Shown here piece by piece: positions 2,848 through 56,900 of a stretch of DNA of 64,000 nucleotides (position 1 is its first letter; each line of letters opens with the position of its first letter). The DNA lies in NCBI GenBank assembly GCA_052327205.1, contig CM126224.1:28644001-28708000 (forward strand), given 5' to 3'. Below the pieces are notes generated by a model that made no database searches, was not told the DNA's origin, and worked only from the letters and a program-made list of their open reading frames with translations. A program made the translations under genes and the position numbers. The stretch comes from Somniosus microcephalus (lineage: Eukaryota).

Positions 2848-4054
2848 CAAGCTTCTGCTTTGATTATGTTGCTGAGCCAATAAATTTTTACTGCAGTGTG
2901 AACTAAGAGGTGGCCCAGTAGTTCTGCAAGTTAAATCTGAGGCCCTGATCCAGTGGTCAGTTTGGGACTGAATGTCCATACTTACCCCAGCCATTCAACT
3001 GCTTTAGCTTGAATCTCATTTTGAAGCAGGGTTCTATTTTGCAGCGTGCAAGCACACAGCTGACTGTCAGAGTTTGGCCACAGAGGGCTCTCTAATATCT
3101 ATCAGTCTCAACTTAACGCGATGGAATATTGAGCTTTACTTAATGACATTTTGAGAAACAGATCAAGGATTAATGGTTGTACAGTTCATTAGATGATGGA
3201 ACTATAGTCGTTACTGAGATGTTTTTAAAATGCCGAGCTGTTGCCGTCCCATCAAAACTGCCGGACAAACCAGCGCTAATGTTGAAACATACGGAGATTT
3301 TGAGCTCTGTATCTGGCAACAAACCCTGTTGCTAAACAGTCGGCTGTACCTTGCAAGCGTCTCTGTAGCTTAGCAACAGCTTCAGCGAGACCTTGCAGAG
3401 CTTGACTGTTGAGAAAAAAGCAACGAAAAGAGAAAAACCCTAACGAAACGGCTCCTGATCTTTGACGGTGGCTCGAGCTTGCCGGACATTTAGCCTCCGG
3501 ATAACACACAGTTTCCTGTAACTCCCAACTGTGGTCCAGTTACATAGACAGCCCTCTGGTATGTTACCTAAATGGCCATTCTTTGTTTGAATGTTGGACA
3601 GTTATAAAGCAGGAGAGAGGGGAATCAGCAGCATCAAAGAGCAACTTCAACCTGCCCTTATCCGACATCCTCGCACATATATGCCACATTATTATTTATA
3701 TAAATAAATCTTGATTTGTGCCTGCAGGATTTTCCATTATAAATTCCTATGTCTATGTCTGCATCTATAATGGATATTGCCTATGTAAACTCTCACTATT
3801 GTTTGTGTTGTCACACCTTGAATTTACATCTCCCAACTCCTCGGCATGTACTGCAGAGAATTTCGGTCTCTAATCCCACTTAACCTGACGACTACATGTG
3901 GTATTGGCTGCTTGAAGATTAAGTAGCGACTGTTATCAAACTTACAAACCCAGCCAGGTTTAATACTTTGCGACCACTATTTTCTTGCTCGGATTGCTGT
4001 GAAATCGCTTGTAGCTCTTGAGCTATAATTTCCAGCAGAAGTATTCATTTTGAA

Positions 4055-4153
4055 TTAAAAACAAAAATTGCTGGAAATACTCAGTAGGTCGGGCAGCATT
4101 TGTGGAGAGAGAAACCGAGTTAACGTTTCAGGCCAGTGACCTTTCATCAGAAT
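4055..4153 (-). mobile_element. Half copy of the Penelope-type short repeat with a hammerhead core on the minus strand
   Basis: Minus strand reads CTGATGA-AAGGTC-ACT-GGCCT-GAAAC-GTT-AAC. Confidence 0.7.
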
Positions 4154-5086: not shown

Positions 5087-5105
5087 ATTTTATTGACTAA
5101 ATTTA

Positions 5106-8100
5106 ATGATGTCCGACAACGAGTCACAACCGGCGGAGGAGCCACCAGCGCAGCTCCCAGGAGCACAGCCACACCAGCCAGCTTGGCTGCGAGCCCTCAG
5201 ACCGCCGTACCTGGACCTGAACCCACGAGCAGCAAACTCAGCCGCAGACTTTAAACACTGGCTGGTCTGCTTCGAATCATACCTGAGAGAATCCAGCGTC
5301 CCTCAGGCATCCAAACTAAGTGTCCTGCAGGCACAACTGAGCCCGAGAGTATACACTCTCATCGAGGACATGACTACCTACGAGACCGCCATCAACCTGC
5401 TGAAACAGAAGTACCGGACCCCGGTAAACTACATGTACGCTAGGCACCTCCTAAGATCACGGCCGCAACAGCCAGGAGAATCAGTAGCCGAATTCTCACA
5501 GGCGCTATATGCACTCGCCAGGAACTGTGACTTTAAATCGGTGTCGGCAGCCGAAAATACTGAAGATAATATCCGCGACGCATTCCTGAAAGGCCTACGG
5601 TCCGAGTACTCACGGCAAAGACTGCTGGAAGCTAAAGACCTCAGCATGGAAAAAGCTGAAGCCCTCGCTATCTCCCTGGAAGTGGCCCACCAAGATCAGG
5701 AAGCATTCACCAGGTACTGCTCGCGACCCTGGGACTCGGGCCCGACCCCTACCACAGCACCCTTCCCAGCGCCGCCCCCGGGATCTACCTCTGCGTCGGC
5801 GTCCCGGACCCGACCGGCCCCGCCACCCCCGGCACCGGCCCCGACATCGGGCATCCGCGATCGGGCCGCCGGCTGTTTTTTTTGTGGCCAGGAGAAGCAC
5901 CCGAGGTCGCGCTGCCCAGCCAAGAACTCCATATGTAAAACCTGCCTGAAGAAAGGCCACTTCTCCAAGGCCTGCAGGAGCGGATCCTCAGAGGCCAGCA
6001 GTGCCGCATGCGAACTATGGGGGCGGCCATCTTCGTTTAGGGCAACTGAGGCCAGCATCCCCACACATGAGTCATGGGGGCGGCCATCTTTGATTAAGGC
6101 AACCGACCCCAATAGTGCCTCATGGGGCCCTACCTCGTGGGAGACGCCATTTTACTCACCACGCCCGACCGCCTCGCCCGCAGATGACAACGACTCGCTC
6201 AGCTACACACTAGCTTCCGTCACCCTGGACCAAGCCCGCCCGCACCATCTGTCCAAGTCAATGATGGACATCAAAGTGAACGGCCACGCCACGACCTGCC
6301 TGTTCGACAGCGGAAGCACGGAGAGCTTCATCCACCCAGACACGGTGAGCCACTACTCCCTCTCTGTCCTACCAACGCGCAGCCGAATCTCGATGGCATC
6401 GAGGTCCCACGCCACGGACATCAGCGGCTACTGTGTCGTGACCCTGTCGGTTAAGGGCACGGAGTATAAAAACTTTAAACTCCTCGTCCTCCCCCATCTC
6501 TGCGCTGCCGTCCTACTAGGGCTGGACTTCCAATCCCACCTCCAAAGCGTAACCCTAGCATACGGTGGACCCCTCCCCCCACTCACAGTCAACAACCAGC
6601 AAACGTTAAACCGCCCACCGCGTAACACCTGCAGCCTCTCCACCCTCAAGGTCCCGCCACCCTCTCTGTTTGCTAACCTTACCCCTGACTGCAAACCCGT
6701 CGCTACCAAAAGCAGGCGGTATAGCGCCGGGGACAGAGCCTTCATTAGCTCTGAGGTGCGGCGCCTCCTGAAAGAGGGCATTATCGAGGGGAGCAGCAGC
6801 CCCTGGCGTGCCCAGGTCGTAGTCGTAAAGACCGGCGATAAAAACCGCCTGGTCATCGACTACAGCCAGACCATAAACAGATATACCCAGCTGGACGCAT
6901 ACCCCCTCCCCCGCATATCTGACATGGTCAATCAGATTGCACAGTATAAAGTATTCTCGACCATCGACCTGAAGTCGGCCTACCACCAACTCCCTATCCA
7001 CCCTGAGGACCGCCAGTATACCGCCTTCGAGGCGAATGGGCGCCTATACCACTTCCTTAGGGTCCCCTTCGGTGTCACTAATGGGGTCTCGGTCTTCCAA
7101 AGGGAGATGGACCAGATGGTTGACCAGAACGAACTGCAGGCTACATTCCCCTACCTAGATAACGTCACTATCTGCGGCCGCGACCAGCAGGAACATGACG
7201 CGAATCTGGAGAAATTCCTCCGTACGGCCCAACGGCTGAACCTCACCTACAATAAGGAGAAATGCGTGTTTAACACCACGCGCCTTGCCATCCTCGGCTG
7301 CGTAGTGGAGAACGGAATCATCGGCCCCGACCCAGAAAGAATGCGCCCCCTCATGGAGCTACCCCTCCCCCACTGCCCTAAAGCACTTAGGAGAACCCTG
7401 GGGCTTTTCGCCTACTATGCCCAATGGGTACCCAATTACGCGGACAAAGCCAGACCCCTCCTGAAAGCCACTTCCTTCCCCCTCACGGAGGAGGCGTGCG
7501 CGGCCTTCTCCCTCATTAAGGGAGACATAGCCAAGGCCACGATGCACGCAGTGGACGAGTCCATCCCCTTTCAGGTGGAGAGCGACGCATCCGACTTCGC
7601 CTTAGCCGCCACCCTAAACCAGGAGGGGAGGCCAGTGGCCTTCTTCTCAAGGACCCTACAGGGCCCCGAGATCCGACATTCGTCGGTCGAGAAAGAGGCC
7701 CAGGCGATCGTGGAGGCAGTACGGCGCTGGAGGCACTACCTGGCAGGCAAACGATTTACCCTCCTCACCGACCAGCGTTCGGTGGCTTTCATGTTTAATA
7801 ACAAGCTGAAGGGCAAAATCAAGAATGACAAGATTTTGAGATGGAGAATCGAGCTCTCCACCTACGATTATGAGATCTTGTACCGGCCAGGCAAGCTGAA
7901 CGAATCCCCTGATGCCCTTTCACGAATGACATGCGCCAGCGCGCATATCGATAGGCTTCAGACCCTCCACGACCAGCTCTGCCACCCCGGAGTCACCAGA
8001 CTCTACCATTTCATTAAGGCCCGCAACCTGACCTACTCCATCGAGGAGGTCAGGACCATGACCAGGAACTGCCAGACCTGTGCGGAGTGCAAACCGCACT

Positions 8101-9017
8101 TCTATAGGCCGGACCGAGCAAGCCTGATCAAGGCCACCCGCCCCTTCGAGCGCCTGAGCATCGACTTTAAGGGGCCCCTCCCGTCCTCTGACCGTAATGT
8201 GTACTTCCTCAACATCGTTGATGAGTACTCCCGTTTCCCCTTTGCCTTCCCCTGCCCCGACATGACCAGTAGCACGGTCATTAAGTGCCTGAATGCCCTC
8301 TTCGCCTTGTTCGGGTTCCCGAACTATATACACAGCGACCGGGGCTCCTCCTTCATGAGCGAGGAACTCCGGCAATTCCTCCTAGAGAGAGGTATTGCAG
8401 CAAGCAGGACCACCAGCTACAACCCCAGAGGTAACGGTCAGGTGGAAAGAGAGAACGCGACGGTATGGAAGGCCGTCCTCTTAGCCTTAAAGTCTAAGGG
8501 CCTCCCAACCTCCCGCTGGCAAGAAGTCCTCCCGACAGCGCTGCACTCCATCCGGTCATTACTTTGCACGGCCACTAACACCACCCCCCATGAACGAATG
8601 TTCGTTTTCCCCAGGAAGTCGACTACGGGAACCACTCTACCAACCTGGCTGACCGCCCCGGGGCCGGTCTGGCTGCGGAAACACGTGAGGACCCATAAAA
8701 CGGACCCCCTGGTCGAGAGGGTGAACCTCCTGCACGCCAACCCCCAGTACGCCTACGTGGCGTACCCAGACGGGCGGGAGGACACTGTCTCCCTACGAGA
8801 CCTCGCACCCTCAGCCGATCCGGAAACACCGCCACCACCCCCCCCAACCTCAGTCCAGGTAGACGGCATGCCGGAACCCCACGAGCCCTCGCCGACCACG
8901 CAAACACCAGCATCAACACCGGATAAGGCACCAGCACCGGATAAGGCAACACCACCGCTGCGGCGATCGGAGAGGCTTACGAAGCCTCCGGACAGACTGA
9001 CCTACCAGAATTGGTAG
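5106..9017 (+). CDS. Gag-Pol polyprotein, 1303 aa (Gag with two zinc knuckles, aspartic protease, RT, RNase H, integrase)
   Basis: Knuckles CFFCGQEKHPRSRC and CKTCLKKGHFSKAC; protease LFDSGS; RT IDLKSAYHQ, PFGV, YLDN; RNase H SDAS, EKEA, TDQ; integrase H-H-C-C plus IDFKG, SDRGSSF, NGQVERENA. No env or chromodomain seen. Confidence 0.97.
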   Translation: MMSDNESQPAEEPPAQLPGAQPHQPAWLRALRPPYLDLNPRAANSAADFKHWLVCFESYLRESSVPQASKLSVLQAQLSPRVYTLIEDMTTYETAINLLKQKYRTPVNYMYARHLLRSRPQQPGESVAEFSQALYALARNCDFKSVSAAENTEDNIRDAFLKGLRSEYSRQRLLEAKDLSMEKAEALAISLEVAHQDQEAFTRYCSRPWDSGPTPTTAPFPAPPPGSTSASASRTRPAPPPPAPAPTSGIRDRAAGCFFCGQEKHPRSRCPAKNSICKTCLKKGHFSKACRSGSSEASSAACELWGRPSSFRATEASIPTHESWGRPSLIKATDPNSASWGPTSWETPFYSPRPTASPADDNDSLSYTLASVTLDQARPHHLSKSMMDIKVNGHATTCLFDSGSTESFIHPDTVSHYSLSVLPTRSRISMASRSHATDISGYCVVTLSVKGTEYKNFKLLVLPHLCAAVLLGLDFQSHLQSVTLAYGGPLPPLTVNNQQTLNRPPRNTCSLSTLKVPPPSLFANLTPDCKPVATKSRRYSAGDRAFISSEVRRLLKEGIIEGSSSPWRAQVVVVKTGDKNRLVIDYSQTINRYTQLDAYPLPRISDMVNQIAQYKVFSTIDLKSAYHQLPIHPEDRQYTAFEANGRLYHFLRVPFGVTNGVSVFQREMDQMVDQNELQATFPYLDNVTICGRDQQEHDANLEKFLRTAQRLNLTYNKEKCVFNTTRLAILGCVVENGIIGPDPERMRPLMELPLPHCPKALRRTLGLFAYYAQWVPNYADKARPLLKATSFPLTEEACAAFSLIKGDIAKATMHAVDESIPFQVESDASDFALAATLNQEGRPVAFFSRTLQGPEIRHSSVEKEAQAIVEAVRRWRHYLAGKRFTLLTDQRSVAFMFNNKLKGKIKNDKILRWRIELSTYDYEILYRPGKLNESPDALSRMTCASAHIDRLQTLHDQLCHPGVTRLYHFIKARNLTYSIEEVRTMTRNCQTCAECKPHFYRPDRASLIKATRPFERLSIDFKGPLPSSDRNVYFLNIVDEYSRFPFAFPCPDMTSSTVIKCLNALFALFGFPNYIHSDRGSSFMSEELRQFLLERGIAASRTTSYNPRGNGQVERENATVWKAVLLALKSKGLPTSRWQEVLPTALHSIRSLLCTATNTTPHERMFVFPRKSTTGTTLPTWLTAPGPVWLRKHVRTHKTDPLVERVNLLHANPQYAYVAYPDGREDTVSLRDLAPSADPETPPPPPPTSVQVDGMPEPHEPSPTTQTPASTPDKAPAPDKATPPLRRSERLTKPPDRLTYQNW

Positions 9018-25082: not shown

Positions 25083-25311
25083 AAAAACAGAAAATGCTGT
25101 AAACACTCAGCAGGTCAGGCAGCATCTGTGGAGAGAGAAACCGAGTTAACGTTTCAGGTCGACGACCCTTTGTCAGAACTGGCGCCAGAGTCATCGACCT
25201 GAAACATTAACTCTGTTTCTCTCTCCACAGATGCTGCCCGACCTGCTGAGTATTGCCAGCAGTTTCTGTTCTTATTTCAGATTTCCAGCATCTGCAGTAT
25301 TTTGCTTTTGT
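25083..25311. mobile_element. Palindromic Penelope-type non-autonomous insert
   Basis: Long inverted repeat centred near 25180. 14-bp TSD aatagttttgctat (25069-25082, 25312-25325). Degenerate hammerhead core (CTGACAA...GAAAC) on the minus strand. Confidence 0.8.
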
Positions 25312-31227: not shown

Positions 31228-31742
31228 AAGGACTTCCATTTATCGTGTCTTTCACATGTCCCGGATATGCCCATGTGCTTCACAACCAGTCAATTACTTT
31301 TGAAGTGTAGTTACTATTGTGTCGGCAAATGTGGCGGCCAATATGTATACAGACAGGTCTTTGAAAAAGTGTGAATAAAATGCAAAAAAACCTGCTAATT
31401 CTGGAAATCTGATTCAAAAATAGAAAATGCTGAAATGCTCAGGTGATCCTTCAGCATCTGTGGAGCAAACAGGCAAGTTAACACCTAAAAGGCCAACTTG
31501 TCTGTTTCTTCACAGATGCTGACGGGCATTTGAAAAAGTGTCTCGTGATCCTTTCTATCCACCTGAACAGCCTGATGGAACCTCGGGGTTAATGTCTCAT
31601 CCGAAAGATGGCACCTCTGCCAATGCTGCACCTTCCCGCAGTGCTGCACCAGATTATGTGCTCATATCCCGGAGGGAGACTTGAACCAAGAACTTTTTGA
31701 GTCGGAGACGAGAGTGCTGCCACTGAGCCAAGCTGACACTCA
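31228..31742 (-). mobile_element. DeuSINE (SacSINE1-like) with a nested Penelope-type insert (31373-31528)
   Basis: Reverse complement of the Deu core (ggttaatgtctcatccgaaagatggcacc) and a tRNA head. The nested insert is flanked by a 13-bp TSD tttgaaaaagtgt (31360-31372, 31529-31541). Confidence 0.75.
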
Positions 31743-32224: not shown

Positions 32225-33320
32225 CGAGTCATAGAGTTATACAGCACAGAAAGAGGCCCTTCGGCCCATCGCGTCCGCGCCGGCCATCAAGCCCTGTCTA
32301 ATCTAATCCCATTTTCCAGCATTTGGTCCGTAGCCTTGTATGCTATGGCATTTCAAGTGCTCATCCAAATGCTTCTTGAATGTTGTGAGGGTTCCTGCCT
32401 CTACCACCCTTTCAGGCAGTGAGTTCCAGATTCCAACCACCCTCTGGGTGAAAAAGTTTTTCCTCAAATCCCCTCTAAACCTCCTGCCCCTTACCTTGAA
32501 TCTATGCCCCCTTGTTATTGACCCCTCTACTAAGGGGAAAAGTTCCTTTCTATCTACCCTATCTATGCCCCTCATAATTTTGTACACCTCAATCAGGTCC
32601 CCCCTCAGCCTTCTCTGCTCCAAGGAAAATAACCCCAGCCTGTCCAGTCTTTCTTCATAGCTGAAGCGCTCCAGCCCAGGTAACATCCTGGTAAATCTCC
32701 TCTGCACCCTCTCCAAAGCAATCACATCCTTCCTATAGTGTGGCAACCAGAACTGCACACAGTACTTCAGCTGTGGCCTTTACCAACGTTTTGTACAGCT
32801 CCATCATAACTTCCCTGCTCTTGCCTTCATTAGCCGAGGCATAGAATATAAGTATCCCATATGCCTTTTTAACCACCTTAGCCACCTGTTCTGCTGCCTC
32901 CAGGGATCTATGTACATGCACACCAAGGTCCCTCTGATCCTCTGTCTTTCCTAGGGTCTTACCATTCATTGTGTATTCCCTTGCCTTGTTAGTCCGTCCA
33001 AAATGCATCACCTCACACTTTTCAGGGTTAAATTCCATTTGCCACTGTTCCGCCCATCTGACCAACCCATCTATATCGTCCTGCAGCCTGAGGCTTCCCT
33101 CCTCGCTATTTACCACCCCACCAATTTTCGTGTCATCTGCGAACTTACTGATCATACCTTTTACATTCACATCCAAATCATTAATGTAGACCACAAACAG
33201 CAAGGGACCCAGCACTGATCCCTGCGGTACCCCACTGGACACAGGGTTCCAGTCACAAAAACAACCTTCCACCATCACCTTCTGCCACTAAGCCAGTTTT
33301 GGATCCAATGTGCCAAGTAT
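32225..33320 (-). mobile_element. 5'-truncated CR1 LINE (RT)
   Basis: Peptides SGVPQGSVLGPLLFVVYINDL, KFADDTK, QWQMEFNPEKC, ALERVQRRFTRMLP; frameshifted. Confidence 0.93.
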
Positions 33321-34501: not shown

Positions 34502-35396
34502 TACAACGAAATGTAGGCTTGCGGCTCCCGAGAGTGTACAATTTGGATTAGGACACTTAAACATTCAACATACATTTATACATTTGGCTTGCAGTATATT
34601 AGCATAAATATGACCATAATAAAGTGCATTGGCAGATGTGCAGGCTTTAGTGTTTATTTGTGGAGTTCAGTAGGATGACAGCCCTGGGAAAGAAGCTGTT
34701 CCTAAATCTGGTCGTACGGGTGCGAATGCATCTGTCGCGTCTTCCAGATGGTAGGAGGGCGAACAGATTGTGGCTGGGGTGGGCAGGGTCTTTGATGATG
34801 GACCGTGCCCTCCGTAGGCAGCGTTTCTGATATATATGCTCTATGGTCGGGTGCCGGTAATGCGTTGGGCAGTTTTGACTACCCGCTGCAGGGCTTTCCG
34901 GTCATGGTAGCTACAGCTGCCATATCATACCGTGATACAGTTTGTCCGGATGCTCTCTATAGTGCAGCGGTAGAAGTTAGAGAGGATCAGGGGTGACGGA
35001 TTACATCCCTTCAGCCTCCTCAAGAAATATAGGCGCTGCTGGGCCTTCTTCACCAGAGAGGAGGTGTTGAGGGACCAGGAGAGGTCTTCCGTGATGTGGA
35101 CTCCGAGGAACTTAAAGCTGGCCACCCTTTCCACCTCCGCCCCATTGATGTGGATGGGGGTGTGACTTCCGCCTTTGGACTTCCTGAAGTCCACGATTAT
35201 TTCCTTTGTTTTCTTGGTGTTAAGGGCCAGGTTGTTGTCGGCGCACCACTTCACGAGATGCTGGACCTCCTCCCTGTAGGCTGACTCATCGTTGTTGATG
35301 ATCTGGCCTACTACCGTGGACCTACTACTACTAGCTGTCCTAAACATGCATATTGTAAATGTAGAAATATAATTTCTCCAAATAAAGTTGTGTTAC

Positions 35397-36416
35397 AGTA
35401 AGATTGCCATCGAATTACAGTATGCAGACGATGTTTGCGTCTGCGCTCACTCTGAGGCCGAACTCCAAACCATCGTTAACACCTTCACCAAAGCGTACGA
35501 GAGCATGGGCCTTACACTAAACATCCGTAAGACAAAGGTCCTCTACCAACCTGCCCCCGCCACACAGTACTGCTCCCCGATTATCAAAATCCATGACGAG
35601 GCCTTGGACAACGTGGACCACTTTCCAAACCTCAGGAGCCTACTGTCAACAAGGGCAGACGTCGATGACGAAGTCCAACACCGCCTTCAGTGTGCCAGTG
35701 CAGCCTTCGGTCGCCTGAGGAAGAGAGTGTCTGAAGACCAGGACCTCAAACCCAGCACCAAGCTCATGGTCTACAGAGCAGTAGTGATACTCGCCCTCCT
35801 GTATGCTTCAGAGACATGGACCATGTACAGCAGGCACCTCAAAGCACTGGAGAGGTACCACCAACGCTGCCTGCACAAGATCCTGCAAATTCATTGGCAG
35901 GATAGGCGCACCAACGTCCGTGTTCTCGCTCAGGCCAACATCCCCAGCATCGAAGCTTTGACCACGCTCGATCAGCTCCAATGGACAGCGTCCAAATGCC
36001 CGATACGAGACTCCCAAAACAATCGCTCTACTCGGAACTCCGACATGGCAAGAGAGCCTCAGGTGGGCAGAGGAAACGTTTCAAGGACACCCTCAAAGCC
36101 TCCTTGAAAAAATGCAACATCCCCACCGACACCTGAGAATCCCTGGCCCAAGACCGCACAAAGTGGAGGAGAAGCATCCGGGAAGGCGCCGAACACCTCG
36201 AGTCTCTTCGCCAGGAGCAAGCGGAAGCCAAGTGCAAACAGCGGAAGGAGCGCACGTCAACCCAGGCACCCCACCCACCCGCCCCTTCAACCACTGTCTG
36301 CCCCACCTGTGACAGAGACTGTAGGTCCCGCATTGGACTCATCAGTCACCTGAGAACTCATTTTTAATGTGGAAGCAAGTCATCCTTGGTTCCGAGGGAC
36401 TGCCTAAGAAGAAGAA
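35397..36416 (+). mobile_element. RTE-clade (BovB/Expander-like) LINE 3' part
   Basis: Peptides LQYADD, GLTLNIRKTKVL, TKLMVYRAVV..LLYASETWT, a C-terminal CPTC..C.SRIGL.SHLRTH zinc finger, and an (AAG)n tail. Confidence 0.9.
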
Positions 36417-38929: not shown

Positions 38930-40038
38930 CATTGATTGGAAGTGGTGTCTAATGAGGCGCTCACGATCAGCCCTTGCAGAAGCAAGCTCGAGTGGCTCCC
39001 TCCTCCATTGTTGTTGCTCCTCCTTCCTCTTCCTCCTCTCTTCCTCCTCCCCGAGGTGGACCTGCAATCCCTGGTTGCAGTGGTTGGGCCCTCAGAATGG
39101 CCAGGTTGTGCAAGATGCAGCAAACAACGATGAAAAGGGAGACTCGATCAGGGGAGCACTGCAGGGCTCCTCCAGAGCGGTCATGGTAGCGGAACCGTTG
39201 CTTTAGGACCCCGATAGTTGTTCGATCAGGTTCCTGGTGGCGCTATGGCTGTCATTGTATGTGTGCTGAGCAGGAGTGTTGGGGTTGCGGAGGGGTGTCA
39301 TCAGCCAGGTGGCGAGTGGATAACCCTTGTCTCCGAGCAGCCAGCCGCGAGCTTCATGTGGTGGGTGGAACAGTGCTGGGACACCAGTCTGTCGCAGGAT
39401 GACTTCATCCTCACCACGATACATTGTCTGTGGTCGCACACCAACTGAATGTTCAGAGTGTGGTAGCTTTTGTGGTTACGGAACACCTCTGCATTGTGAT
39501 GAGGTGCCCACAATGCCATGTGGATGCAGTCAATGGTGCCCTGAACCATGGGGAATCCCGCTATCCTTGCAAAGCCCCATGAGCATTTGTCCTGCTTCTC
39601 TCTGGTGATGGGGAATGAGATGTACTCCCTTCTCCTTCTGTCGAGAGCGTCTGTTACCTCCTGGTTGCAGCAATGGACGGCGAACTGCGAAATTTTTGCA
39701 ATATCCCTTGTTGAAGCCTGGAAGGAGCCACTGGCATAGAAATTGAGAGCGACTGAGCTTAACTGCCACTGAGAGAGACGTCTTGGTCCTGAGCTGAGGC
39801 TGGAGCTCTGGCTGCAGGAGGTGGTGGAGCTCTGTGACCACCTCCTTGCTGAAGCGGAGCCTTCTGAGAGATGAATGTAGGAGAATTGCTCCCGGAATAC
39901 CCTGGGAGGGTCAGGCCTCCTGTTGTGAGGTCTGTCGGCCCTCCTCCCTCAGGCCACATTTGGCAATCTCGGTCTCTGCGTCCATTGCCTCCGACGTAGT
40001 TGCCGGAGGGCAAGGTGAAGTGCCAGCACAGCCCCCAT
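38930..40038 (-). pseudogene. Harbinger (HARBI1-like) DDE transposase, frameshifted
   Basis: Peptides VQGTIDCIH, FRNHKSYHTLNIQLVCDH, WLLGDKGYPLATWLMTP, YNDSHSATRNLIEQ. Confidence 0.9.
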
Positions 40039-42999: not shown

Positions 43000-45570
43000 C
43001 AAGTGGAGCATGTCCCATCACACTCCTGACTTGTAGGTGGTAGAGGGGCTTTGGGGAGTTAGGATATGAGTCACTTGTCACAGAATACCCAGCCTCCGAC
43101 CTGCTCTCGTAGCCACGGCATATATGTGGGTGGTCCAGTTGAGTTTCTGGTCACTGGTGATCTCCAGGATGTTTATGGTGGGGGACTCGGCAATGGTAAT
43201 GCCATTGAATGTCAAGGGGAGTTGGTTATGCTCTCTTGTTGGCGATGGTCATTGCCTGACACTTGTGTGGTGCGAATGTTACTTGTCACGTCAGCTCAAG
43301 TCTGGACGGTGTCCAGGTTTTGCTGCATGTCGGCATGAACTGCTTCATTATCTGAGAAATTGCAAATGGAACTGAACACTGCAATCATCAGCAAACAGCC
43401 CCACTTCTGACCATATGATGGAGGGAAGGACATTGAGGAAGCAGCTGAAGATAGTTGGGTTTAGGGCACTGCTCTGAGAAACTCCTGCAAGATGAAATGA
43501 TTGGTCTCCCACAAATACAACCATCTTCCTTCGTGCCAGGTGTGACTCCAGCCACTGGAGAGTTTTCCCTCTGATCCACATTGACTTCAGTTTTACTAGG
43601 GCTCCTTGATGCCACACTCTGTCAAAAGCTACCTTGATGCCAAGGGCAGTCACTCTCAGCTCACCTCTGAAAATTAGCTCTTGTGTCCATGTTTGGACCA
43701 AGGCTGTAATGAGGTCCGGAGCAGTGGCTCTGGCAGGGCCCAAATTGAGCATTGGTGAACAGGTTATTGGTGAGTACGTGCCACTTGACGACTCCTTTTA
43801 TCAGTTTGCTGATGATTGGGAATGGCAATTGGCGGTGATGGATTTGTCCTGCTTTTTGCGAACAGGACGTACCTGGGCAATTTTCCACATTGTCTGGTAG
43901 AGGCCAGTGTTGTAGCTCTACTGGAAGAGCTTAGTTAAGTTCTGGAGCACAGGTCTTCAGCACTACAGCTGGGATGTTGTCAGGGCCGATAGCATTTGTT
44001 GTGTCTAGTGCATTGAGCTGTTTCTTGATGTCACGTGGAGTGAATTGAATTGGCTGAAGACTGGCTTCTTTGATGGTTGGGACCTCATGATGTAGCCAAG
44101 AAGGATTATCAACTTGGCACTTCGGCTGAAGATGGCGTGAATACTTCAGCCTTGTCTTTTGCAGTCACGTGCTGGACTCCGCCAGCATTGAGGATGTGGA
44201 TGTTGATGGAGCCTCCTCCTCCGGTTAGTTGCTGAATTCTCCACCATTTGCGACTGGATGTGGGAGGACTGCAGAGCTTTGACATGATCCATTGATTGTG
44301 GGATCACTTAGCTCTGTCTATAACATGCTGCTTCTGCTATTTAGCAAGCATGTAGTCCTGTGTTGTAGCTTCACGAGGTTGGCACCTGATTTTCAGGTAC
44401 GCCTAGTGCTGCTTCCGGCATGCTCTTCTACACTCCTCATCGAACCAGAATTGGTTATCTGGCTTGATGGTGATCGAGGAGTGAGAGATATGCCAGGCCA
44501 TAAAGTTACAGATTGTGGCATATATAGTTCTGATGGATCCCCAGTTTTAAGCTGCTAGATTTGTTTTTAATCTGTCCCACGTAGCACGGTAGTAGTGCCA
44601 CACGATGGATGGTGTCCTCGGTGTGAAATCAGGCCTTGATCTTCACGAGGACTGTACATTGGTCACTCCTACCGATGCTGTCATGGACAGATGCACCTGT
44701 GACCAATGTTCACTTTAATTTTTTTTGGGTGCGCGGCCCATTCAAAATACCATGCATGCGCTGTTTCTCCTATTTAAAAGCCGGTGAGCCGGCTGCATGG
44801 GAGCTGCAGAGCGCTGCGCGGCTTAAAGGGAACATTGCCTGTCACAGATTGATTGGTGTAGATGAGGTTAAGTAGGTTATTCCCTCATGTTGGTTCTCTT
44901 ACCACCTGCTGCAAGCCCAGTCTGGTAGCTATGTTCTTCAGGGCTCAGTCAGTGGTGGTACGACCAGGCCACTCTTGATGATGAACATTGAAGTCCCACC
45001 CAGAATACATTCTGTGCCTTTGCTCCCTCGAAGTGGTGTACAGCGTGAGGAGGTAATGATTCAGCTGAGGGAGGATGTTGGGTAGTAATCAGCAGGAAGT
45101 TTCCTTGCCAACGTTTGACTTGAAGCCATGAGACTTCATGGGGTCTGGAGTCAATGTTGAGGATTCCCAGGGCCACCCCGACTGTGTTCCACTGTTTCCC
45201 CCACCTTTTTGGGGGTCTGTCCAGCCAGTTTTTCTAACTCTCTGATCTCTCTGACCGATCTTAGCCGCCAATGTGGCTGACTCTTAACTGCCCTCTGAAG
45301 TGAGCTAGCAAGTCACTTCGTTCTATGAAACCACGAGGAAGCAACAAAAGAATAAAATTGGATGGTCCATTCGGCTGCCACCTTGGCATAGATTCAGGAC
45401 ACGAGAAAGGCACCCAGCCCTGCTTACTAACATCTGGGAACTGCTGCCAAAGTTGTGACAGCTATCTCACAGACAAGTCAAGCAACAGTCTAGCATAGTC
45501 ATAATTGGAGAACTATACCAATGAGCCAGACTCCTCCTCCACCATCCCTGGGTATGTCTTGGCCCACCCA
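43000..45570 (-). mobile_element. Decayed CR1-group LINE ORF2 (endonuclease through RT)
   Basis: APDLITALVQTW..RVTALGIKVAFDRVWHQGALVKL..GLFADD on the minus strand, with endonuclease-like remnants near 45000-45500. Confidence 0.75.
44704..44837. mobile_element. 134-bp hAT-type MITE nested in the LINE
   Basis: TIRs caatgttc(a/c)ctttaa and an 8-bp TSD cctgtgac/cctgtcac with one mismatch. Confidence 0.7.
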
Positions 45571-50680: not shown

Positions 50681-51738
50681 AATTAAACATTTATTTTACA
50701 TTTCTCTTTGATTTGTCTCGGTATTTTCTTTATGATAATTTTATATATTCTTGTTTTGGCTTTAATATCTGTGTGTGCTATTAATATGCCTTTCCTATAA
50801 ATGAGGCGTCTAAGGAAGAGGGGATAAACATTCCTGATTTGCACTCGCACCAACTTTTTCAGTAAGCTTGTCAGGAGGAATTTCATTCTTCCTCCAGCAA
50901 AAGGATGGCCTTCTGCATTCTTTCCAAAATAAAAACGCAATAAATCTGTCAAGTGATCTGATGATCTGTCCTATTTGGCGTGGTTTTGGGGGAGTAAAGC
51001 AGACGAGGATAGATAGGAGATTGCCCGAGACTCTGGGTGGCAGTTGAACAGAGGTTGAGTCTATGATGTGTACTGTTGTTGTAAATACCAAGGAATCTTA
51101 CCTGAATCTGGTGTGGTCATTATACCAAAAGAGCAGAGAACAGAATTTTTTGAAGCTATCTTGGATGGTATCCTTCTTAATCATTGGATCTGCGGACCCA
51201 TTATCTGTCTTAATACTGTCAACACGAAAAGCTCTGGCCAGATAAATGAGGGTCCTTACAGGTAACATGGGTTCCAACAATGTCCCCTAACCCAAGACAT
51301 TTCTGTCTTCCTCAGGTAATTGAAGACATGGGTGGACCAGTCAGTATGACTGTATGCCATTACTTTTAGAAAAGTCTGCCCTGGTACGACACGTTGCATT
51401 GGTCTGTTTGGGGAAGTCGGTGCAAAGATGTTCTGGGGTATATGCCAAAGAGATTTTGGTATTGGAAGCTCTGAAGTTTCCCTCTAATAGTGATCTAGGT
51501 CAAATTTCCTTTGTTGATTTTAGCACCAAAATAGCTTGTATTAAAGAAAATAGTTGCTTATTTAACCTCTGGGCAGAGCTTTGCATGCCTTGCCCTTCAG
51601 TGGGGTTATGCTGAGGATTACGGTCTTGACCCAATCGTGTTATTACAGGGTTTCCCATTCCTGACTCCAGAGTGATTATTGTTCAAGGGTAGCTTTGTTG
51701 CACTGTTAGGCTCCAGAGGAGTGATCTTTAACTCTTGC

Positions 51739-51974
51739 GAATACAAAAGCAAAATACTGCGGATGCTGGAAATCTGAAATAAAAACAGAAAATGCTGGAA
51801 ATACTCAACAGGCCAGGCAGCATCAGTGGAGGGAGAAAAACAGTTAACGTTTCAGGTCGATGACCTTTCATCAGAACCCTGACGAAAGGGTCGTCAACCT
51901 GAAACGTTAACTCTGTTTCTCTCTCCACAGATGCTGCCTGACCGGCTGAGTATCTCCAGCATTTTCTGTTTTTA
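51739..51974. mobile_element. Palindromic Penelope-type non-autonomous insert with two hammerhead cores
   Basis: Long inverted repeat centred near 51878. 12-bp TSD tttaactcttgc (51727-51738, 51975-51986). Confidence 0.85.
51843..51877 (-). ncRNA. Minimal type I hammerhead ribozyme motif
   Basis: Minus strand GTT-CTGATGA-A-AGGTC-ATC-GACCT-GAAAC-GTT-AAC gives stem I GTT/AAC, core CUGAUGA, stem II AGGUC/GACCU, GAAA, and a loopless palindromic stem III with a GUU cleavage triplet. Confidence 0.65.
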
Positions 51975-52451
51975 TTTAACTCTTGCTACTTTGTTCTCCC
52001 CAAAAAAGGTTATTCATACCCACCCTGGATCAGAGAAAACTGAACAAGTGCCTCAAATGAGCAGTTAAAAACAGGCTGCTGTAATCAGTCAGGTAATATC
52101 CCAGGGGACTTGATGACTGCCAAAGATTTAAACAATGCCTCTCTCGTTTTAACCACCAGGGAAGGGAGTACCTTGCAAAATTTCTGTCTTTCAAGGTGAT
52201 AGGCGAGCACTACTACAGGGGGTTGTTCTTCGATCTAGTCGCAGTACACAAGCTCTAAGTGTATGTCTGTGATAACTGCTGATGGTTATCTCCGTGTTTG
52301 CTCTTATCTAGGTGACTGACTCATATGGAAACACTTGTAAAGAAAGCAACAAAGTACTCCTGGCAATAGAGCTATTTACTTACCTCGGCCCCTTGGTGGA
52401 TCTGAGTTGGTACCTTCCAGAATCCTCCTTTTATTAGGAATCCACTCCTCC

Positions 52452-56489: not shown

Positions 56490-56900
56490 TGTATTGCATC
56501 TTTCACATGCTCAAGCGCTTTCCAGCCAAGGAATTACTGTTGAAGTGCCATCTCCGTTGTTTTGTAGGCAGGCATGGCAGTCAATTTGCACACAGTAGGG
56601 TCCCACCAACAGCCGTGAGATAAATGATGTTGATTGAGGGATAAATATTGGTCATGGCATGGAGAACTCCCCTGCTGTTATTGTCATGGGATCTTTGACA
56701 TCTACCAAGGACCATTTATAGAGCAAATTAAAAAAAATAGCAAACTAAACAAACAGGTTAATTTTCATGATGGCAAAATACTGCGGATGCTGCAAACCCG
56801 AAATAACAACAGAAAACACTGGAAAAACTCAGCAGGCCAGGCAACATCCATGGAGAGAGAAACAGAGTCAATGTTTCGGGTCGAAACCTTTCTACAGAAT
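56490..56900. mobile_element. DeuSINE fragment (minus strand) followed by a half Penelope-type repeat
   Basis: ttgagggataaatattgg and gggatctttgacatctacc are reverse complements of the SINE at 27645. 56772-56900 matches the palindromic repeat arm. Confidence 0.6.

Follow-up and report, generated by a model that had tools for sequence, protein, structure and literature searches.

A short palindrome with two hammerhead motifs in the genome of Somniosus microcephalus is made of two copies of the end of an autonomous Penelope-like element

The sequence analysed is a stretch of 64,000 nucleotides from Somniosus microcephalus (GCA_052327205.1, contig CM126224.1, positions 28,644,001 to 28,708,000 of the forward strand), referred to below as the window. 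The insert at positions 51739-51974 is a 236-bp head-to-head inverted pair, the arms of which pair over 92 nt with 88% complementarity, and it is bounded by exact 12-bp copies of the TSD TTTAACTCTTGC (left, 51727-51738; right, 51975-51986; plus strand). The minus-strand arm (51739-51877) corresponds to the last ~138 nt of the pLTR of a Penelope-like element (PLE) and is about 40 nt longer than the plus-strand arm, the extra length being the PLE tail. Positions are numbered from the first T of TTCTGATG (+1, window position 51876), the preceding G being 0 and the A before it -1, which makes +3 the C3 of the core and +32 the first base past the predicted cut. In these terms the tailed arm runs from 0 to +138, and its tail from about +99 to +138 (51739-51778, minus strand), with a 22-nt motif repeated across it at a spacing of 29 nt. 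The inverted arm (51879-51974, plus strand) has no tail, covers positions +3 to about +98 and is 88% identical to the other; at the head-to-head junction lies one base (51878) that is non-templated by comparison with the upstream sequence of full-length copies.

Sequence and fold prediction delimit a minimal type I hammerhead motif on the minus strand (51843-51877), with a GTT/AAC stem I, CTGATGA, a 5-bp stem II and GAAA, and with no closed stem III. Its core boxes (CTGATGA..GAAAC) occupy 51874-51849, and the cut is predicted after GUU, between 51846 and 51845. The second core, on the plus strand (51879-51911, with CTGACGA..GAAAC at 51879-51905), lacks the 5' strand of stem I and has one mismatch in stem II. 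The first-pass annotation had described a ~235-bp inverted repeat flanked by 12-bp TSDs, in which both strands carry a hammerhead core of the minimal type I kind, the plus-strand one being disrupted in stem I, and this description agrees with what was found, the motif with its core boxes and stems being present by sequence.

Five relatives are found elsewhere in the window (similarity E 1e-79 to 2e-11). All five had been recognised in the first-pass annotation, and the TSDs given for two of them are real, but only those two are palindromic: an independent palindromic stump at 25083-25311, with its own junction and a 14-bp TSD, and an old one at 31373-31528, joined near +29, with no core boxes and a 13-bp TSD. 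The copies placed at 2722, 4055 and 56772 are single minus-strand arms, namely a decayed tailed arm (2722-2847) and a tail-less arm with an intact core (4051-4152), for neither of which a TSD was found, and a tailed arm with a 10-bp TSD (56768-56899). Among the window copies, two intact back-to-back core boxes are present only in the insert, and the core pattern otherwise matches one family copy, at 4125-4150. The window also holds a 1306-aa open frame (5097-9017, plus strand) with protease, RT, RNase H and integrase, an LTR retrotransposon with the Gypsy domain order, as well as fragments of LINE-type RTs and of a DDE_Tnp_4 (Harbinger-type) transposase (32736-33287, 34928-35392, 35373-36104, 39304-39948 and 43351-43797).

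The two arms of the insert represent the pLTR end of an autonomous PLE encoding RT and GIY-YIG, of which they comprise the terminal 138 and 96 nt. Most of the best 30 genomic matches to the arm extend upstream into a common pyrimidine-rich 3' UTR, and several of these 30 reach the end of the GIY-YIG coding region; a GIY-YIG protein piece gave 95,794 first-look candidates in the genome, of which 150 were scored. Three copies have open RT and GIY-YIG frames of 788-819 aa, each terminating in the same arm, with Pfam matches to RVT_1 (E 8e-6 to 2e-4) and GIY-YIG (6e-4 to 2e-3) that are significant while lying below the gathering cut-offs. The Penelope origin proposed in the first-pass annotation, with mobilisation by a PLE RT/GIY-YIG, is supported by these frames, and the link to an autonomous element that it called for is illustrated by copy L064, which is of the full-length type and is composed of an inverted truncated copy, a pLTR, the ORF and a second pLTR, within a 14-bp TSD. 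The reading frame of L064 continues through the arm, and in full-length copies the sequence of the tailed arm doubles as the start of the RT-GIY-YIG frame; pLTRs in direct and inverted orientation, with a pLTR overlapping the ORF start, were seen in L064, L065, L066 and L068. As in EN+ PLEs, there is a single ORF with RT followed by a C-terminal GIY-YIG and physically linked to the arm, a 30-40-bp tail at one end, a TSD, and a pLTR hammerhead motif, the last recognised by sequence and stems and with no Rfam match. All long frames have CKRRRCNTC before the GIY-YIG motif, so that the element carries a Neptune-type, Zn-finger-like CX2-5CxxC linker between RT and EN; such a linker is given as the criterion of the Neptune clade in the available text of PMC8557442, and the clade placement suggested here follows from this motif. 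Inverted partners of about 0.1, 0.4, 0.5 and 1.9 kb were found, and the insert can therefore be regarded as the short end of a size continuum.

Some variants of the family were also noted. At L066:2710-6995 an inverted PLE copy of 1919 bp is 99.95% identical to its partner, pointing to a very recent insertion or to conversion. One PLE subfamily (L073, L160, L183, L200 and L203) has a variant hammerhead core (TTTTGAAG), in which the C of core position 3 is replaced by T and the core box contains no ATG, while L131, L133 and L178 belong to another, distant family of PLEs, at 31-40% protein identity, with a hammerhead motif of its own.

The first-pass annotation referred to PLE hammerheads acting as dimers, which does not apply to the insert, where the two cores are on opposite strands: a cis dimer cannot form because a transcript of either strand carries one sense core together with its antisense. 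The minus-strand RNA is predicted to fold with an MFE of -161 kcal/mol, with the core bases paired (P unpaired ≤0.01) and a stem II probability of 0, and to force the hammerhead fold would cost 37.6 kcal/mol in the palindrome versus 3.2 in a single arm. The cores are thus predicted to be sequestered in a hairpin, and the ~100-bp dsRNA stem that had been proposed corresponds to a stem of ~95 bp, predicted if the insert is transcribed. An Rfam scan of the window gave 0 matches at the gathering score. Across 66 unbiased arms, mean identity was 94% at 11 core positions versus 91% at 63 downstream non-CpG positions (p=0.07), so that a core no more conserved than its flanks, which had been named beforehand as an outcome contrary to the proposal, was seen in part. 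The hammerhead motifs have probably been carried along with the pLTR end, and no hammerhead fold is predicted for them in read-through RNA. RNA-seq coverage pooled over thousands of copies has no listed pile-up of reads at the cut site. For minimal PLE hammerheads, the available text of PMC4209133 describes monomers as inactive and dimers as weak, and that of PMC11167929 describes the hammerhead of an Anolis PLE as protein-dependent and as dispensable for insertion in vitro.

Two readings that would give the insert a role or a life of its own were weighed against its being a by-product of the parent element. Co-option of this copy by the host as a regulatory hairpin, serving as an editing substrate, an RNA structure or a cleavage site, is very unlikely. 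The predicted stem is stable, with the folding energy given above, and family arms are found on both strands in RNA-seq of related or the same species (two runs, coverage pooled over copies), but the 12% divergence between the arms is at the level of unrelated copies and the difference between core and flank is not significant. Nor was a host gene found that would bear out the location in host pre-mRNA proposed in the first-pass annotation: Pfam gave no host-gene match among 29 long and 141 shorter window ORFs, and only transposon or weak matches among 149 of the 219 low-repeat window ORFs of at least 52 aa. The other reading, a non-autonomous palindromic family of retrozyme or MITE type that propagates itself and is mobilised in trans by the PLE protein, is close to the retrozyme-like non-coding family of the first-pass annotation, and it is now extremely unlikely and largely refuted, although it can draw on the numbers. 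A sample of 100 10-kb stretches placed at round coordinates (1.0 Mb of the 6.45-Gb genome) contained 62 arm matches (3 from the distant family) and 12 short palindromes. Extrapolated to the whole genome, this gives about 4x10^5 arms and 8x10^4 palindromes and bears out the high abundance claimed earlier. Palindrome lengths, moreover, cluster near 210-265 bp, and one join recurs in 9 of the 55 junction loci listed.

Against this reading, the lengths cluster because the 5' and 3' ends are fixed, as they also are in single arms. An exact back-to-back junction pattern had 612/602 matches genome-wide and 0 in the control, but the spacers (0-20 nt) are mostly different among the 55 loci listed, and the commonest join is a CAG/CTG microhomology at the arm start that is found in different subfamilies. 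TSD candidates of 7-15 bp were found in 20 of 25 palindromes and all are different. A palindromic stump on chromosome 4 (L301-L313, G000:C4:33-87 Mb) has been multiplied at least 13 times inside a larger duplicated unit; 13 of the 14 chromosome-4 junction copies have flanks in common over 180 bp or more, in most cases over 0.7 kb or more, and this one-junction cluster was accordingly rejected as a case of self-propagation. The repeated solo stub, a tail-less hammerhead arm of ~100 bp with a 13-bp TSD, lies inside a non-coding element of ~1.0 kb with short terminal inverted repeats and TAA flanks, which we take to be PIF/Harbinger-like (L271-L300; in L273, for example, at G000:C1:24139631, the carrier extends from ~270 bp before to 740 bp after the stub), and it has been amplified with this carrier to ~770 exact-pattern copies by extrapolation. 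Tandem same-strand hammerheads, as in non-LTR retrozymes, are absent, since the arms of the insert are inverted and either strand has a single sense core, and in place of propagation from a master unit the junctions are heterogeneous, the repeated ones being passengers. Since junctions, TSDs and inverted-arm sizes vary and the repeated junctions ride in other repeats, the palindrome does not qualify as a retrozyme that copies itself; both arms are the terminus of an autonomous PLE, and the junction differs between loci.

The insert is thus very probably an extremely short, 5'-truncated insertion of the autonomous PLE with an inverted 5'-truncated partner, likely formed in one event and dead on arrival. 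In the route that we infer, the RT-GIY-YIG protein would nick both target strands about 12 bp apart, and each nick would prime reverse transcription of the same element RNA, starting at about +137 and about +100. Both cDNAs would halt near the 5' edge of the hammerhead and be joined head to head, and gap filling would give the TSD. The two ends of the PLE tail would be the two RT start sites, and the tail motif with its 29-nt spacing may set both. Nicking and extension of both target strands, with two internal RT starts bounding the tail and a predicted dimer, are described in the available text of PMC11167929. A tail is present on exactly one arm in 21 of 25 palindromes, with both arms tailed in 1, neither in 2 and 1 unresolved, so that 3 break the one-tail rule. 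Arms of the same locus are more alike (0.932, n=22) than arms of different loci (0.890, n=967; p=4e-6; 23 loci, L093 and L109 being excluded), a difference in keeping with a single template for each event, although gene conversion could also raise this identity; the insert's own arms, 88% alike, are no more similar than unrelated arms. An inverted arm made by fold-back or self-priming of a single nucleic-acid strand would leave the same dead-on-arrival stump and would also give both arms a common template. Many junctions are small hairpins or microhomology joins, and antisense-template self-priming has been proposed for Adineta PLEs (PMC3846280, available text). This origin of the partner is nevertheless unlikely, as it offers no simple account of the partner ending at the second RT start (about +100) in most loci, or of junctions that have deletions or extra bases on both sides.

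The 5' ends of the arms show a distinctive pattern. Short arms break off at a sharp edge 4-6 nt ahead of the core. This edge coincides with CCAGTTC, an initiator-like sequence that matches the consensus YYANWYY, and also with a sequence resembling a 3' splice site. When the first 100 of 28,025 downstream-anchor matches were sorted by hand, 51 extended upstream, 43 were short and 6 were set aside (4 duplicates, 2 interrupted); the short arms started at -21 to -4 in 2 cases, at -3 to +12 in 29 and at +13 to +37 in 12. Only 2-4 of the 43 began at the hammerhead cut site (+32), and cleaved RNA was rejected as the main template. Genome-wide, with filters that differ slightly between positions, ends with a non-template flank numbered 1332 (preceded by G) and 685 (preceded by A/T) at -1, 1349 at -2, 492 at -3 and 149 at -5, about half of the last being long copies with a shortened T-run. 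The passenger stub made up 58 of the 100 G-start matches listed and 3 of the 100 A/T matches listed; after its removal, G was ~46% of the letters before A-1, versus 21 of 100 before C-2 among the matches listed. A lone G between TSD and arm was present in 3 of 11 TSD-resolved single arms and a lone A/T in 0 of 22 (single arms with no TSD call: 25 of 36 for G, 18 of 40 for A/T). These numbers are small, but the excess of G hints at a cap-derived base and hence at a transcription start at -1. Against a capped start, the antisense GAGTT of stem I can also supply a G through microhomology, the U-run may make RT stall, pooled RNA-seq, which combines both strands and thousands of copies and is too coarse to show start sites, has no pile-up of starts there, and in D. 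virilis the Penelope start lies 46 bp upstream of an intron, the end of which adjoins helix I (PMC2377424 and PMC4209133, available text).

Run-off from the 5' end of the RNA is given an even chance as the cause of the edge, stalling of RT is possible but doubtful, and a splice-related or other cause is less probable still. Spliced RNA as the template of the short arms is not supported: a good 3' splice site does lie at the edge, as it does in D. virilis (PMC4209133, available text), but the short arms have no common upstream exon, many retain AG, CAG or CCAG, and 0 of the 15 joints listed (of 99) is an RNA splice into +1. Tentatively, the short stumps may be integrated run-off ('strong-stop') cDNAs, copied from the tail sites of the 5' pLTR to the capped RNA 5' end at CCAGTTC, 4 nt ahead of the hammerhead core, often with a cap-derived G added, and made of two nick-primed cDNAs joined head to head. 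If so, the stumps, which number in the tens of thousands, would preserve in vivo evidence of where Penelope transcription starts and of insertion by twin priming. In front of some short arms (e.g., at G000:C1:172335148) the first bases of the arm occur a second time as a small direct repeat, as though RT had copied the end of the template again. No paper on such an edge or on such shark stumps was found in the mainly open-access literature searched.

As an element, the insert is ordinary, a by-product of a known class of retrotransposon, and it counsels caution against annotating such palindromes as MITEs or retrozymes. The stumps are nonetheless a large natural data set on the PLE insertion mechanism, bearing on the origin of the inverted copy, the tail and the role of the hammerhead. 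Only the 5' edge could add to what is known of that mechanism, and together with the one-tail rule it leads to predictions that are precise and can be tested. Hairpins of ~100 bp, estimated to number in the tens of thousands, may also be a large source of dsRNA in these genomes.

The comparison with known systems, as far as the available texts go, places the insert among PLE insertions. An inverted 5'-truncated copy with a 30-40-bp tail and a TSD has been published for Adineta Pen2a (PMC3846280) and as a scheme (PMC8557442), and an inverted-repeat form is described for the Penelope of D. virilis (PMC2377424). Like EN+ PLE insertions, the insert has a head-to-head copy, a one-sided tail, a TSD, a pLTR with the ORF start and a palindromic junction; it differs in consisting only of the last 100-140 nt, in belonging to an estimated tens of thousands and in the piling up of 5' ends at one edge. 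The core boxes, the extra base before stem II, the short stem I, the palindromic 15.2-16.2 and the lack of stem III are those of the minimal hammerheads of PMC4209133, which already reports paired motifs on opposite strands, at distances of 100-700 bp, as well as single ones left by truncated PLEs; the cores of the insert, in contrast, are 4 bp apart, and sharks are not among the genomes named in the available text. With Poseidon of Anolis (PAc, PMC11167929) the family shares a hammerhead over the ORF start, a tail between two genomic 3' ends and few ends at the cut site, whereas the linker here is of the Neptune type (CX4CX2C) and the available account of PAc describes no 5'-end clustering. 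Finally, non-LTR retrozymes (bioRxiv 10.64898/2026.07.22.740005) are likewise non-coding, derived from a PLE pLTR and equipped with a type I hammerhead, but in the available text they are tandem repeats with a same-strand hammerhead in each unit, while the insert consists of two inverted arms, has a single sense core on either strand and lacks a common master.
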